From contig OZ024744.1 in NCBI GenBank assembly GCA_964016885.1, positions 92,070,001-92,134,000 of the forward strand: DNA of 64,000 bases, given 5' to 3'. The notes under the pieces are model-generated. The model worked only from the letters and a program-made list of their open reading frames with translations, was not told the DNA's origin and did not search any database. Every line of letters starts with the position of its first letter. The stretch's first letter is position 1. The translations under genes and the position numbers were made by a program. This document shows positions 44,700 to 59,970 of the stretch, one piece after another. This DNA comes from Eledone cirrhosa (Eukaryota).

Positions 44700-44729
<30 letters not shown>

Positions 44730-44737
<8 letters not shown>

Positions 44738-46320
44738 AGATCAAAAGATGGTTAAATGAGTTCCATGTATTTTATTATGCGCATTTCAAAAACAAATATC
44801 ATCATGCAATAACATTTGTGTTTTCATCAGATAAAATAGGACATGATATGAAGGTTAAAAAACACTTGTGGATAGTGCAGTTTTAAATCAACATATGAAA
44901 AGTAGTTTTAGATTGATGTGTGATATTGGGAAAAAAATTTTTTTATGAGGGGGGGGGGGGGGATGAAAAGTAGGAGATGAGCGTAAAAAGAGGAGGGGGA
45001 GGAGTATAGTGAGGAAGGATGAGATAGGAGGAGAGATGGGTGATAGAGAGAGAGAGATAGCTTTTATAACTGAGAAAAATATATTGTTTTACATAGAGAG
45101 GTTGAAAAAACCGTTGGAAGATAATGTATAAATTAAAAGAATTTGAAAATTTACGAAGAGAAAAATAATGTAAAGTTAAGGTTTGTATATTGAAGGGTTT
45201 AATAATATGTGTGATGAAAAGAAATTGCTAATATGTATTAAGAATAATATTTAAGGGTTTAATAATATGTGCGATGGAAAGAAAATGTTAATGTGTATTA
45301 AGAATAATTTTAAGGGTTTAATAATATGTGCGATGGAAAGAAAATGTTGATATGTATTATTAAAAAAAACAGAAGTGATGTAAGTAAGGATATATTGTGA
45401 GATGGGCATGAATAAGTTAGATGAAAGGGAGAAAAAATAATGAATAGTGGATGAATAATCTAACGTCAAAAAATGTTTATGTTTACGAAGGATTTTTTCA
45501 AGGTGATATGAAGTAAGAATATAGTGTATGTGTAATAATTGTTTCTGTGTTAGGCACAGTGAGAAAAGGTACAGATTAGGGGTTAGAAATTAGGAGTGAT
45601 GTAGAATATAATAAATATAATAAATAACTTTGAAATAAGGTAGAAAGATGGGTATATTTTTAAAGAAGTATATATATATATATGTGCCTTTGAGAAAAGG
45701 ATTCTGAATTGATAAAGTTTATCATATTAGCTGTATACTTTGTGGAAAGTTCTGTGGAATTTATGCAAGCAGATAGAAAACAAGTCAGTGCGTCTATTTA
45801 TTATAGAATCTAAATTAGAAATAATGGTAATTTTTTCATTTAGACAGAGATTGCAAGTCTTAGATAGAGAAATGTTCAAGTATGGAGAAGCAGAAGAAAC
45901 CTTTTTCCAAGAGATGTTATATTTAATATTTTTGTCTTTCAAGGACCATATGAGTTCTGAGAGAGCCGTGTTGGTTCTTTTAAGTTTATATTTAAAAGAC
46001 GAATGATGATTATAGAGACGAGCTTTAAAGGAGGTGGAAGTGGAGCCAAAATAGGTGAAGGAATTGGTGTCAGTTATAACTTTACATTCATAAATTAATT
46101 TTTATCAAGACAATGTTTTTTATCCTTCATATCATGTCCTCCTATTTTATCTGATGAAAACACAAATGTTATTGCATGATGATATTTGTTTATACATGGA
46201 ACTCATTTAACCATCTTTTGATCTTATATATTATGTATACTCCAGTCCTACAAACTGTAGAGTGCTTCTTATCCGATATCTGCATTGCTTTATTGTACTA
46301 CAATAAAACTCACCTCCTAT
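44730..46320 (-). mobile_element. Family B-related PLE 3' fragment with inverted pLTR piece
   Basis: GIY-YIG C-terminus at 45727-46115; HHR at 44770-44837; inversion at 46115-46320. Confidence 0.85.
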
Positions 46321-46765
46321 ATATATATATATTTTTTCTTATATTTATTTGCGTGTGTGAATATGTAGAGGAGTGCATTTATGTATGTGTATGTATGTAC
46401 GTGTGTATATATGTATGATTGTGTGCATGTATGTATGTATGTATATGTATGTGTGTATGGCTATGTTTGTGTATGTGTATGCTTGTACACATATATACAT
46501 ACATATGTATATGTGTATATATATATATATGTATGTATATGTGTGTATGTATATGTATTTATATTTATGTTTCTATGTGTATATATGTGTGTATATATGT
46601 GTGTGTGGTTGTATATATGTATGTGTATGTATGGATGTGTTGATATTTATGTGCGTATGTATATATGTGTTTGTGTGTATTTATATACACATATATGTGT
46701 GTATATATGTGTGCGTGTGTGTATGTATGAGTGTATGTATGTGTATATATATATGTATGTATATG

Positions 46766-47302: not shown

Positions 47303-47420
47303 ATAGGAAAAAGTATGACCCCGACTGCAGAGCTCAAGCCATTTCGACGGCTATTTCTGGGTCCAGAAATAGCCGTCGAAACGGCTTGAGCTCTGCCGTC
47401 GGGGTCATACTTCTTTCTAT
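47303..47420. repeat. Fold-back hairpin of hammerhead 3' halves
   Basis: Same family as 40142 and 50581; apex at ~47361. Confidence 0.85.
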
Positions 47421-47515
47421 TACCCACTCTACTACCCTAAGTATTGAGTACTCTAGTGCGTTATGGTCCATCTGGTTCCTTACCACATTTCCTTCGCTTT
47501 ATATATATATATATA

Positions 47516-50200
47516 TGTACAGCCAGCGGAAATAACATCTGTGAAATAAACAGCTCCATCTATCTGCTTAGCTAGCTACCTCACCGTGAAACAAACAACT
47601 CTTAAAGCCACCAAAATAAAACGCCTACGCAGCGGCTAAACATCAAACGATTATTTTTGTATAAATAGAGTGATTCCAAACACTTTCGCCAGTCGACCTT
47701 TGGCAGAATCAGCTAGCGTATCGTTGTTCCTCTCCTCTGCCACGCTTATCACTCACACACACCTTGTACCTCTGTATCGTCGCTTCATGTATGAAAACAA
47801 ATAGCTGACCGAAACTACATCTCTCGCTTTGCTCGTACTTTCAACTTGCGCTTTCGTCTATTCATCCTTATCGTATGAGACAACAGTCTTTTTAAGGGCT
47901 ACCCTCAGATCCGATCAGACCGTATGCGATAACAGTCCTTTTAAGGGATATTCTCGGATCTGATCAGAAGTAGTGACAAGACTGACTAACCACGTTGCTA
48001 CAATTGGTGACCCCGACGTGATTCGAACACGCAACCAGACATCATCCTAACAAGATACCAGCATGGACATGTCACAACCAACGTCAGAGGCCGAGATTTC
48101 AGAGTTGCGGGCTATGATCCGAGAGCGGATTGGTCAAATTAAAGCCCTCTCAAATCAAGTAGAGAACCTGACCTTTCAAACACACCGGCGACGCAACAAC
48201 AGTCGATCCAGGCCTTTTCACAGTCGAAGATCCAGAAGTCCCAGTCAAAATCGTGTGTCTGGCAACCTCTGCTGGTATCACACAGAATTCGGCGCACAGG
48301 CATCTAAGTGTAGAGCCCCGTGCTCTTTCCAGAATACCACCCAGGGAAACGGGCAAACCAGGGCCTAGCGACGACATTCACCCCTGGTACTGAGAAGAAA
48401 AGTCGTCTATTTTTTATCAACGACCAAGCGACAGGCATCCGTTACCTCGTGGATACAGGAGCCCAGGTTAGTGTTATTCCTGTTTCACTAGTCTCGGGCA
48501 AAAGATATCTAACACCGTCCTTTCTGCAGGCAGTGAACCGATCGTCAATTCCGACTTTCGGGGCGAAATCACTAACCCTCAATTTAGGCCTGAGGCGTCG
48601 TTTTCAATGGGTGTTTGTCATGGCAGACCTGCCGCCCCTTATCTTAGGAGCCGATTTTCTCCACCACTTCAACCTTCTGGTGGACATGAAGAACCGGAGG
48701 CTTATTGACACCACCACAAACCTCACTGTGAGAGGTATATTTACGACGCAATCCAGTGAGCCCTGTAATTTGCCAGTCAGAGCCTTCGCGGTACAACGGC
48801 ATTCTCCAGAAATACCCAGACATCACTCGCCCGGTATTTAAGGATGGTCCCATTAAGCATAGTCGCACGCTCCACATCGAGAGAAGGGGACCACCCACAG
48901 CTGCCAGACCAAGGAGACTGCCTCCAGACCGATTGAGAATCGTCAAACAGGAGTTTCAACACATGCTGGACCTCGGAATCATTCGCCAGCAACTGGTCTG
49001 CACCCCTACACCTTGTTCCTAAAAAAACGAGAATGATTGGCGACCATGTGGGGATTATCGTGCACTCAACAATTCTATAGTACCCGATAATTACCCTGTA
49101 CCTCACTTGCACGACTTTTCTGCCTCTCTGCAAGGCGCGCGCATCTTTTCCAAGATAGATTTGGTACGGGCATATAACCAGATACCTATGGAGCCTGCAG
49201 ATATTCCGAAGACCGCAATCACAACACCGTTCGGTTTATTTGAATTCTTGCGAATGCCGTTCGGTCTGCGCAATGCTGCACAAACTTTCCACGGTTTATT
49301 GACACCGTGTTACGTGATCTACCCTTTGTATACGCGTATATCGACGACGTGCTGGTAGCAAGTACTTCCGAGCAAGAACACGAGAAGCACTTAGATCTTC
49401 TTTTCCAACGTTTGGACGAGTACGGTATTATCATCAACTCCAGCAAGTGCCTTCTCGGCGTTCCTTCACTGTCCTTTCTCGGGCACATCATTGATAAAGA
49501 CGGCATTCGTCCACTTCCCGAGAAAGTAAAAGCTATCCGCAATTTTCCCGCACCTACATCACTTCGGAAACTGCGTGAATTCCTCGGTTTGGTGAATTTT
49601 TATAGGCGTTTCATCCCTCATTGTGCCGACGCAACCAGACTCCTTACGGACCTTCTTCGCAACCGGACTCGCAAAAACGAAGAGATCACTCTGAACGAGG
49701 AAGAATTAACATCTTTTAACCGCCTGAAGGAAATGTTGGCAAACGCTTCCATGCTCGTTTTCCCCAGATCTGGCGCTCCTCTTTCGCTGCTAGTGGACGC
49801 ATCAGACACGGGGGTTGGAGGTGTTTTACAACAACATGTCGACGGCGTTTGGCAACCCTTATCCTTCTTTTCTAAGCGGTTGCAACCTGCAGAAACCAAA
49901 TACAGAACGTTTAGCCGCGAACTCTTGGCAACCCACCTTTCGGTTAAACATTTTCGTCACATGCTCAAAGGATCGGATTTCGCGATCTACAAGGACCATA
50001 AACCACTAGTTTACGCATTCCGTACCAAACCTGATCGACATTTACCGAGAGAACTCCGACACCTGGATTTTGTCTCCCAATATTCAACTGATATTCGGCA
50101 TATCAAGGGATCAGACAACGTAGCAGCCGACGCCCTGTCCCGAACCCAGCTGAACATAATACATGCGCATTCAGGCTTCGACCTTCAACAGATCGCAGCT
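47516..50200 (+). mobile_element. Ty3/Gypsy LTR retrotransposon, CsRn1-like, decayed (5' LTR 47516-48002; no integrase or 3' LTR)
   Basis: TG..CA LTR, tRNA-Trp PBS, gag CWYH..C..PC (CHCC), GGGAAAC slip site at 48344, protease LVDTGA, RT YIDD, RNase H DAS..ADALSR. Confidence 0.92.
48005..48036 (+). promoter_or_regulatory. Primer-binding site complementary to tRNA-Trp (32 nt)
   Basis: TGGTGACCCCGACGTGATTCGAACACGCAACC. Confidence 0.85.
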
Positions 50201-50580
50201 TTGATACTACTCAATTTCTACAAGTTTTTTCTATTTTCAACTTATTACCCTGTAATTGTAAGATAGCATTGTGATTTTTCTTTTTTCATTTCTCACTATC
50301 TAATTTTATATATTTTTTATTTCTTTCTATTATCTTTTATTATCTCCTACTCTCATTCGATTTACCTATTCTATAACCTCCCTCCTCCACTTCATACACT
50401 ATCCTTAGAATCTGCTGTATACATATGACTTTCAATGCTTGACCGCTCCACTCACTCCCCTATTGTTCTATAGGCAAGTTCAGCCACCCCTACCTCCCAC
50501 CAAATGCCATGATAGACTTATTTGTGTTTGCAACAAATTTTAACCAATCCTCCTGACAACTACAATCATCCCATATAAGG

Positions 50581-50688
50581 AAGTACCCCCTTGACAAGTT
50601 CGGCTATTTATTCACCAGGCTAAAAATTCTAATTTAGTCCAGAAATAGTCGTCGAAACGGCTTGAGCTCTGCCGTCGGAGTCATACTT
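50581..50688 (+). ncRNA. Hammerhead, U3-A8 core variant, branched helix II
   Basis: AAGTACCCCC-TTGACAA-G..CGGCTATTT...AAATAGTCGTC-GAAA-CGGC..GCCG-TC-GGAGTCATACTT. Confidence 0.65.
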
Positions 50689-50691
50689 TTT

Positions 50692-50772
<81 letters not shown>

Positions 50773-50779
50773 TTAAAAT

Positions 50780-52243
50780 ATATATATACATTTAAAATAT
50801 ATGATAAACACGAAATGTGTTTACATTGCAACAGACAAAGTTAGCTATTAATGAAATAAACTAATTAAAGTGAATACAATTTGTCTGTCGCGATATAAGT
50901 CAATAAAGACAAGATTATATTGGCAACGGCCATGATTCCTGGACAGATTCAGATTTCAAAATTCAAACCTGTTCTGTAGACGAATTTGAACCTCGAAACC
51001 TAAATAAGTTTCGCAACGGTGGTATGTAAATTGAAAAATAAAGAGAATCGAAATGGAATAGAAATAAAAAAGTGAAATATCCAAATCTTCTGTGCTTATC
51101 AACTGGAATCCAGTAAAATTAGTATATCTCACATCAAAAATTTTGCAGGTCTGACTACACGTGTGTAGGCAGGCCAAAACTAGCCGTCCCACATTCACGG
51201 TGCTAGAAATAACAGCCGCTTATGCAGGATTAAGGATCAGCTCTACAATAAAGGAGCCATACATTATATTATATTTTGAGAATAAACTCTCAGTCGTTTA
51301 CAATAATTAAGCTCCAGGAAAAGGGGCTCTTCCGAGCAGTTAAATACATTTAAAATATATGATAAACACGAAATGTGTTTACATTGCAACAGACAAAGTT
51401 AGCTATTAATGAAATACAATTTGTCTGTCTCGATATAAGTCAATAAAGACAAGCTTATATTGGCAACGGCCATGATTCCTGGACAGATTCAGATTTCAAA
51501 ATTCAAACCTGTTCTGTAGACGAATTTGAACCTCGAAACCTAAATAAGTTTCGCAACGGTGGAATGTAAATTGAAAAATAAAGAGAATCGAAATGGAATA
51601 GAAATAAAAAAGTGAAATATCCAAATCTTCTGTGCTTATCAACAGGAATCCAGTAAAATTAGTATATCTCACATCTCAAAATATAATATAATGTATGGCT
51701 CCTTTATTGTAGAGCTGATCCTTAATCCTGCATAAGCGGCTGTTATTTCTAGCACCGTGAATGTGGGACGGCTAGTTTTGGCCTGCCTACACACGTGTAG
51801 TCAGACCTGCAAAATTTTTGATGTGAGATATACTAATTTTACTGGATTCCTGTTGATAAGCACAGAAGATTTGGATATTTTACTTTTTTATTTCTATTCC
51901 ATTTCGATTCTCTTTATTTTTCAATTCACATTCCACCGTTGCGAAACTTATTTAGGTTTCGAGGTTCAAATTCGTCTACAGAACAGGTTTGAATTTTGAA
52001 ATCTGAATCTGTCCAGGAATCATGGCCGTTGCCAATATAAGCTTGTCTTTATTGACTTATATCGAGACAGACAAATTGTATTCACTTTAATTAGTTTATT
52101 TCATTAATAGCTAACTTTGTCTGTTGCAATGTAAACACATTTCGTGTTTATCATATATTTTAAATGTATTTAACTGCTCGGAAGAGCCCCTTTTCCTGGA
52201 GCTTAATTATTGTAAACGACTGAGAGTTTATTCTCAAAATATA

Positions 52244-52248
<5 letters not shown>
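50780..52248. repeat. Tandem (540-nt period) plus inverted repeat carrying three large U3-A8 hammerheads
   Basis: Copies at 50934-51110 (minus), 51474-51650 (minus) and 51845-52021 (plus). Confidence 0.85.
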
Positions 52249-52307
<59 letters not shown>

Positions 52308-52312
<5 letters not shown>

Positions 52313-52495
52313 TGTTTCTACTTTCTACAAGGCCATCAATTACCCAGTGCATTACTGGTACTTTATTTTATCGACCCCGTAAGGATGAAAGGCAAAGTTA
52401 ACCTCGGTGGGATTTGAACTCAGACCGCAAAGGGAGGTAACTATGCTGGAAAGCATGGCGTCCGACCCTCTACTGATACTGCCAAGCCACCACCC

Positions 52496-52497
<2 letters not shown>
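52308..52497 (-). mobile_element. tRNA-SINE copy in (AAT)n
   Basis: SINE family match. Confidence 0.85.
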
Positions 52498-52560
<63 letters not shown>

Positions 52561-53340
52561 CCACAGACAAAGATAAAGATCCACAGACATGGAACTGGTT
52601 GAGAAGAGGAGACCTCAAAAAGGCTACAGAAGGAATGCTAATGGCTGCGCAGGAGCAGACCCTCAAAACGAAGTGGTTGAAGCACCATATCTACAAGGAG
52701 GAGGCTAGCCCACTGTGCAGGATCTGTGGAGAGAGAGAGGAGACTGTGGCTCACATTGTGTCCGAGTGTAAACACCTAGCCCAGACCCACTATAAGGGCT
52801 GGAGACACGATGTGATGGGCAGGGTGATCCACTGGCACCTGTGCAAAGTAAACAATTTACCACATTCTGAGAAATGGTATGAGCATAGGCCAGAGGCGGT
52901 GATGGAGAACAATCAGGTGAAGGTGCTGTGGGATTTTAGGATACAGACGGACAAAAAACTGGAACACAATAGACCTGACCTGGTGGTTGTGGACAAAGAA
53001 AAAAGATCGTGTCTGATTGTGGATGTGGCCTGCCCGTTCGACACGAGAGTGCAAGAGAAGGAGAGGGAGAAAATTAACCGATACCAGGACCTAAAGTGGG
53101 AGGTGAAAAGGATCCCGATTGTCATAGGCGCACTGGGGACTATCTCCAAAAGTTTCCAGGGATGGTTAAAGAAAATCGGCCCCTTCACGCTTTTTGGAAC
53201 GCTTCAAAAGGCATGCTTGCTTGGAACAGCAAGAACCCTCCGATACGTCCTGAATATCTGAGGCTGCAGGTAGTGGCTTGATATTCAATCCAACGGACTT
53301 TCCAGTTAACCAACATCAATTACTGAGATTCAAGGAATAA
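52561..53340 (+). mobile_element. R4/Dong-clade non-LTR retrotransposon, 5'-truncated
   Basis: AAQEQ, CRIC..ETVAHIVSEC knuckle, RHD, RPDLVV..D..K RLE motif; (AAT)n on both sides. Confidence 0.9.
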
Positions 53341-55603: not shown

Positions 55604-55869
55604 AATATATATATATATAAATATATATATATATAAATATATATGTAGATAAATCTACCAAGAGTTTACGGTAGTGTCCAATCCGTATGAAGAACTCAAT
55701 GTAATCCGGATATCATGGAAAGAAGAGATGCATTCAAAAATCACTTTCGGTGAAAGATAAACGGAATACAGAGTCAAGATAAAGTATACTTTATATAAAT
55801 ATATATATATTTACATATATATATATATATATTTATATATATATTTACATATATATATATATATATATA

Positions 55870-59838
<3,969 letters not shown>

Positions 59839-59970
59839 ATTTATATATATATATATATTTATATATATATTTATATATATATTTATATATATATTTATAT
59901 ATATATTTATATATATATATATATATAAATATATATATATATAAATATATATAGATATATATTTATATAA

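Follow-up and report, generated by a model that had tools for sequence, protein, structure and literature searches.

The segment at 50694-52289 of the window (the whole 64,000-nt stretch of Eledone cirrhosa DNA analysed here) holds an element without open reading frames (ORFs). Judged from its sequence, it is most likely a non-LTR retrozyme, i.e., a non-autonomous Penelope-like element (PLE), of a known class, with an unusually large predicted hammerhead ribozyme. That the hammerhead motif is real and that the ORF-less element is mobilised by PLEs is highly probable. In the full proposal, one insertion of a 558-nt unit is seen here, whose RNA would cut itself, be circularised and be reverse transcribed by a PLE protein into a (TA)n microsatellite. 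For this whole chain, including the circular template, the evidence tips the balance slightly in favour. The original prediction recognised the motif. It missed that the inverted third copy and the fixed ends form a Penelope-like insertion footprint and that the unit is a dispersed high-copy retroelement.

As shown in Table 1, comparison of the locus with itself gives the order (TA)n, inverted arm (unit positions 499 to 1, then 567 to 147), direct arm (1 to 567) and (TA)n. The unit is 558 nt long. A period of 540 nt had been proposed, which is the spacing of copies that results because the middle copy lacks 18 nt. Two head-to-tail copies with an inverted third had also been described; the arrangement is correct, with the strands exchanged, as the head-to-tail pair lies on the - strand and the single copy on the + strand. 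The unit is indeed ORF-less: the longest stop-to-stop frame in the element is 87 aa and has no Met. Self-comparison reveals no LTR pair in the element. Its GC content is 34%, below 50% as for a non-LTR retrozyme. Four variants are common to all three copies in the window, and one more is present in both inverted copies and absent elsewhere in the sample. In this single case, such sharing is as expected for one molecule copied 1.6 times. From the self-comparison of the arms, a read-through transcript of the locus is expected to form a 499-bp inverted-repeat duplex. Because of this duplex, and because two cut sites are found on the - strand only, one of them with a helix I mismatch, the locus at 50780-52248 is probably a poor source of RNA.

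Table 1. Features of the insertion and of its hammerhead motif (window positions)
Feature	Position	Strand	Remark
(TA)n target microsatellite, left flank	50694-50782	.	
15-nt duplicate of the element's tail-less end	~50770-50784		within left flank
Inverted arm, outer copy, unit positions 1-499	50783-51281	-	stops at fixed tail-less 3' end
Hammerhead copy 1	50934-51110	-	helix I mismatch at 51104; predicted cut between 50942 and 50941
Inverted arm, inner 5'-truncated copy, unit positions 147-567	51273-51675	-	18-nt deletion near 51415
Hammerhead copy 2, intact	51474-51650	-	predicted cut between 51482 and 51481
Direct arm, one complete 558-nt ORF-less unit + 9 nt	51674-52240	+	stops at fixed tailed 3' end
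Outer helix closing a junction around hammerhead and two hairpins	51823-52104 (51823-51838 with 52089-52104)	+	prediction; also predicted in the other four families
Type I hammerhead motif, 177 nt	51845-52021	+	predicted cut after C52013
Helix I, 8 bp, GATTCCTG with CAGGAATC	51845-51852 / 52014-52021	+	
Core TTGATAA (UUGAUAA, U3-A8)	51853-51859	+	
Helix II, 3 bp, GCA / TGC	51860-51862 / 51940-51942	+	
Loop II, 77 nt	51863-51939	+	pyrimidine-rich
GAAAC	51943-51947	+	
Helix III extension, 23 bp	51950-51972 / 51986-52008	+	
GTC (GUC)	52011-52013	+	
Small hairpin directly 3' of helix I	52023-52034	+	retained in families D and E with altered base pairs
68-nt tail	52173-52240	+	on direct arm, missing from inverted arm
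(TA)n target microsatellite, right flank	52239-52289	.	

Other repeats are found around the insertion. At 50600-50693 and 47305-47430, a different and often palindromic repeat ends with GAAAC, a short hairpin, GTC and about 18 nt, followed by (TA)n or other sequence. It resembles the 3' half of a further PLE end that carries a hammerhead; in 17 distinct copies, no hammerhead 5' core is seen in the preceding 70 nt. A SINE-like repeat lies between (TAA)n runs at 52313-52497 (-) and is also present in loci L063 and L112. At 52560-53261 (+), after a (TAA)n run, there is a 233-aa open frame with a CxxC motif and a PD-like motif, which we take to resemble the C-terminus of an R4/Dong-type non-LTR element. 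The frameshifted gag/protease/RT/RNase H remnant at ~48050-50270 (+) is presumably Gypsy-like. Pieces of an A-rich element (44700-46530 and 55840-59880) are duplicated ~11 kb apart, one of them also inverted.

All parts of the predicted motif are found on the + strand at 51845-52021, in the places originally assigned to them. Helix III consists of 2 bp, a 2x2 internal loop and 23 uninterrupted pairs, seven of which are G-U. The G-U pairs had been taken as a sign of selection on the RNA of this strand, and comparison of copies agrees: in 13 of 25 helix III pairs, one side varies between copies, giving either Watson-Crick or G-U, and pairing is kept. In the helix III extension, no pair changes on both sides among 12 copies of families A-D (described below). 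As a source of the G-U pairs, A-to-I editing is disfavoured by the pattern of variation, which is A/G in 8 pairs and C/U in 5. The folding energy of the + strand at 51843-52023 is -43.4 kcal/mol. This strand beats all 200 of 200 shuffles (z -3.6) and the - strand does not (z -1.0), in line with the strand-specific structure that had been proposed. In the copy at 50934-51110, the change at 51104 breaks the second pair of helix I. It had also been anticipated that standard models would miss the motif; Rfam gives no hammerhead match at the gathering score over the window, nor at E<=10 over 50700-52300. The RNA model run over the window gives three strong matches. Because Rfam does not detect this 177-nt form, animal genomes may contain more hammerheads than are counted.

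The thermodynamic ensemble gives helix II (GCA/UGC) a probability close to zero, and its assignment is therefore based on covariation. Imposing the active secondary structure costs 4.9 kcal/mol of ensemble energy in family A and 3.3-8.8 across the five families (model without tertiary contacts or Mg), because the core pairs elsewhere, mostly with loop II. This cost may indicate slow, assisted or switched cleavage, or it may be an artefact of a model without tertiary contacts. A 3' long-range helix is predicted across the families beside the outer helix and two hairpins. A candidate contact between loops I and II, picked by eye, is a possible match of 3-5 bp that would join the start of loop II to the 5' flank of helix I (CUG/CAG in A, C, and D); it is inconsistent in E. 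The region at 51725-51745 and its equivalents in B-D contain a CATATAAA-like motif, a possible TATA box. In B and C it precedes the hammerhead by ~110-130 nt, and its counterparts are CATATATA in D and GCATAAG in A.

The unit is a young and abundant repeat of the 3.0-Gb genome. Its 40 best-scoring places show 96-100% identity and are distributed among many contigs. Genome-wide, a 21-mer that covers helix I and the core is matched exactly 452 times, while its reversed control has no match; the 452 matches include short-loop subfamilies and are a lower bound on hammerhead-bearing copies. Contigs from sequencing of one sample (three runs) also contain the unit with variants, including a short-loop-II form. 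Five homologous ORF-less families, A to E, have units of ~558, 549, 559, 531, and 512 nt, respectively, and are 56-78% identical when one natural unit of each is compared end to end. Family B was found through a 74% neighbour in one locus, and C, D, and E through scans of other loci; a further D-like subfamily was also found. The core is UUGAUAA in A and C, CUGAGGA in B and D, and CUGAUGA in E, so that A and C have U-A as their 3-8 pair, and B, D, and E have C-G. The cleavage triplet is GUC (GUA in D). The helix I sequence differs in all five families, yet it is paired in each. The motif lengths in A-E are 177, 128, 135, 137, and 80 nt, and domain III has 66-67 nt in A-D and 15 in E.

A failure of genomic copies to conserve TTGANAA, GAAAC, and GUC had been named as a refutation. 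It is not seen: the core is intact in 31/35 copies of family A, and in the four other families it is kept with covariation of the 3-8 pair (27/34 in B, 19/21 in C, 17/17 in D, and 17/23 in E; some duplicates remain in these counts). The covariation that had been proposed as a check is also found. In 12 natural copies, three hand-chosen from each of families A-D, 97.9% of cells pair, compared with 15-55% in slid-partner controls. Changes on both sides are seen in 8 of 37 pairs, a value reached by 41 of 500 shuffles in a control that ignores relatedness. They include five of the eight helix I pairs and two of the three helix II pairs. G10.1-C11.1 and A15.1-U16.1 are present in 12/12 copies. Judged by these comparisons, the type I hammerhead motif at 51845-52021 is genuine, specific to its strand and under selection, and it is predicted to cleave.

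Loop II exists in the genome in forms of 35/36, 49/50, 66, and 77 nt, always between GCA and UGC, and the 50-nt form is a plain 14-nt duplication. These forms come from 19 copies parsed from 25 loci by a pattern that itself required the core and helix II. At least seven of the eight helix I pairs are present in 17 of the 19, and all have GUC. As far as can be read from these forms, loop II has grown stepwise by duplication, from 35 to 77 nt. Within families, core changes number 4/385 (vs. 200/10456 in the rest) in A and 12/374 (vs. 199/10378) in B, with no clear excess of conservation in the core. Mutations are spread about evenly within families, which would be expected of dead copies and implies that most copies are decaying, but lends the ribozyme no support.

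The ends of the insertions follow a strict pattern. Of 67 family-A arms, 60 stop at one or the other of two exact positions that lie 68 nt from each other. Both 3' ends occur in all five families, with tails of 65-82 nt, while 5' ends are scattered and the usual flank is (TA)n. In tandem arrays, the 3' end is followed directly by the next unit, at a fixed period. Partial tandems, inverted truncated copies, an optional tail, and a (TA)n bias are known from PLEs (Craig et al., PMC8557442), and the insertion pattern is likewise described by Arkhipova et al. (PMC3846280). The PLE tail is reported to be the distance between two internal RT start sites, both target strands being nicked and extended (Frangieh et al., PMC11167929). 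By analogy, the partial tandems, the tail-less inverted arm, the two fixed 3' ends and the (TA)n targets of the Eledone unit are marks of PLE insertion.

Autonomous PLEs are present in the same genome. A GIY-YIG search gave 10,596 candidates, of which 150 were scored, and 36 loci from these were examined. Among them are autonomous elements with both RVT_1 and GIY-YIG domains. RVT_1 is present in long ORFs (938 and 1096 aa), and a direct scan also finds GIY-YIG in the 938-aa ORF. Intact PLE ORFs lie at C1:145.87 Mb and C1:83.81 Mb. These elements may be called Neptune-like on the basis of domain order and a CxxC linker, without a tree. Their ends carry minimal hammerheads, many with U3-A8 and a GCA/UGC helix II, and one locus (L093) has tailed and tail-less autonomous PLE arms in (TA)n. 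By its kind, the mobiliser of the unit is likely a PLE. At the PLE 3' ends of L069, L071, L087, and L095, the minimal hammerhead has GCAA in place of GAAA, together with U3-A8; its core is possibly inactive or unusual. Among the 36 sampled PLE loci, nhmmer, local alignment, and end profiles detect no homology between the unit and autonomous PLE ends; only separate copies of the unit family are found. Resemblances around 'TTGTAAA' at one PLE end, considered as a link to the unit, scored nothing. No PLE ORF is joined to a unit in 166 sequences (165 family loci and the window). ORF matches near units are found in 7 of the 166; among five examined closely, four are separated from the unit by TA runs and one is an insertion into the ORF. 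In L183 (1875-2200), a family-C unit directly adjoins a PLE ORF in its GIY-YIG part and seems to have inserted there.

Two other identities of the unit can be weighed against these results. A satellite or MITE-like repeat could carry a chance look-alike of a hammerhead, since helix II has only 2-4 bp and the loose descriptor alone also matches unrelated AT-rich loci by chance. For the latter reason, the proof that the motif is not due to chance comes from covariation: between families, helix I, helix II and the 3-8 pair change in a compensatory way, which largely refutes such a repeat. Fixed 3' ends with scattered 5' ends and dispersal over many contigs speak against it too, so that it is very hard to credit. 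The unit could also be the pseudo-LTR (pLTR) of an autonomous PLE whose ORF-bearing copies lie outside the sample. Its end pattern is shared with autonomous PLEs and its hammerhead lies 159-227 nt upstream of the 3' ends; in addition, the unit copies sampled are the top-scoring ones, and the PLE loci examined are 36 from the 150 scored GIY-YIG candidates. Yet the 3' end in tandems runs straight into the next unit, joined ORFs are absent from all 166 sequences, and the autonomous PLEs in the sample differ from the unit in their ends and carry minimal hammerheads. A pseudo-LTR is improbable.

For the ORF-less retrozyme itself, the following steps are proposed. Tandem copies would be transcribed. 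Owing to its long helix III, every ribozyme would be able to act as a monomer and cleave after GUC, whereas the minimal hammerheads of PLEs depend on dimers; the cut monomers would be ligated to circles. A PLE protein would nick both (TA)n strands and start cDNA at unit positions 567 and 499. Each cDNA would run round the template, often beyond one unit, and the two cDNAs would be joined at their truncated ends, giving tandem and inverted arms.

Some of the arms bear on the form of the template. At least one predicted cut site is crossed by 129 of 176 arms, a count inflated by locus selection, and 21 of 176 cross two to four. Since arms cross up to four predicted cut sites, the template would be either a religated circle or an uncut multimer. 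The circle is favoured because selection keeps the ribozyme and cDNAs nevertheless cross its cut site repeatedly. None of 171 arms stops within -3 to +4 of the predicted cut (2.3 expected). Between 5 and 22 nt downstream of it, there is a modest excess of truncations, 13 vs. 4.9 expected (nominal P 0.002; the interval was set after seeing family A, and one duplicated pair is included), which suggests some linear cut templates or a structural block. A strong excess of truncations is also found at the TA-like unit junction (22/171). Shared variants number 4.9 per kb within an insertion vs. 1.2 between insertions, inverted arms included (92 segments, 42 insertions).

The same element and the same PLE mobiliser could also work with a linear template, a partly cut or uncut multimer. 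A slow or protein-assisted ribozyme would then only free the RNA from upstream read-through, and circles would play no part. The folding model disfavours the active fold, truncations are in excess just downstream of the cut site, and a tandem donor equally explains the multi-site arms and the variants shared within insertions. It is reported that the hammerhead of an anole PLE is not needed for insertion in vitro, where uncut RNA is the main substrate (PMC11167929). In Xenopus, one of nine predicted retrozymes cleaved in vitro and eight did not (Li et al. 2026, bioRxiv 10.64898/2026.07.22.740005). Against a linear multimer, the core is strongly conserved between families, the long helix III suits monomer cleavage, no arm stops at the cut itself, and other animal retrozymes are expressed as circles, which are the rule in those studied (PMC7229834). 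The linear multimer is a real possibility, if not a probable one. At the other extreme, the circular template can be extended to a parasite of PLEs in which the host's minimal dimer-type hammerhead was swapped for a giant monomer-acting one. It would replicate as a circular RNA of ~550 nt, its expanding loop II would fold back on the core against re-cutting, and two rolling cDNAs would start from two fixed sites of the circle. As a whole this is rather unlikely; if true, it would be genomic proof that retrozyme circles are PLE templates.

The enzyme that moves animal retrozymes, and whether circle or uncut multimer is its template, are stated to be open questions (PMC7229834; Li et al. 2026). 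In E. cirrhosa, an ORF-less hammerhead unit bears a PLE tail and an inverted arm, its start sites are defined, and the same genome encodes candidate RT/GIY-YIG proteins, making the question testable with the published in vitro PLE assay. Families A-E also provide a natural series of hammerheads of 80-177 nt, with loop II of 32-77 nt and with both C3-G8 and U3-A8. A literature search that covered few subscription papers and did not include Repbase found no published account of families A-E or of a retrozyme hammerhead of such size. U3-A8 is not a novelty. It is described in Perreault 2011 (PMC3088659) and Cervera 2014 (PMC4209133), the latter with about 1,300 Schistosoma PLE hammerheads.

According to Cervera and de la Pena 2020 (PMC7229834), non-LTR retrozymes lack ORFs, form tandem units with type I hammerheads and are expressed as circles, and PLEs are suspected of mobilising them; those of Xenopus are linked to pLTRs (Li et al. 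2026). The Eledone unit resembles those described in metazoans in being an ORF-less low-GC tandem unit with one type I hammerhead, few copies per locus, and co-occurring PLEs. At 558 nt it is larger than the 170-400 nt given in PMC7229834 and within the 51-972 bp of Li et al. 2026. While metazoan non-LTR retrozymes have a helix III of 1-2 bp, families A-D have hammerheads of 128-177 nt with a domain III of 66-67 nt. The PLE tail and inverted arms, directly visible in the Eledone unit, are not mentioned for retrozymes in the text consulted of PMC7229834 and Li et al. 2026. The pLTRs of EN+ (Neptune-like) PLEs share the partial tandems, inverted 5'-truncated arm, optional tail, and (TA)n targets (PMC8557442, PMC3846280, PMC11167929, PMC4209133), as well as a type I hammerhead upstream of the 3' ends and the U3-A8 variant. 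The Eledone unit differs from them in having no ORF, a tail of 65-82 nt rather than 30-40, a large hammerhead instead of a minimal dimer-type one, and no homology to the sampled pLTRs. Fungal and protist PLEs also have type I hammerheads with a large helix III, in which no loop-loop contact is recognisable, and the Serpula PLE hammerhead cleaves as a monomer (PMC4209133). These hammerheads, however, are found in EN-deficient telomeric PLEs, whereas that of Eledone is found in an animal ORF-less element and has a loop II of up to 77 nt. Very large insertions are also tolerated by the discontinuous Clec2 hammerhead (PMC6765202), which is a single-copy mRNA element, while the Eledone hammerhead is part of a mobile tandem unit.
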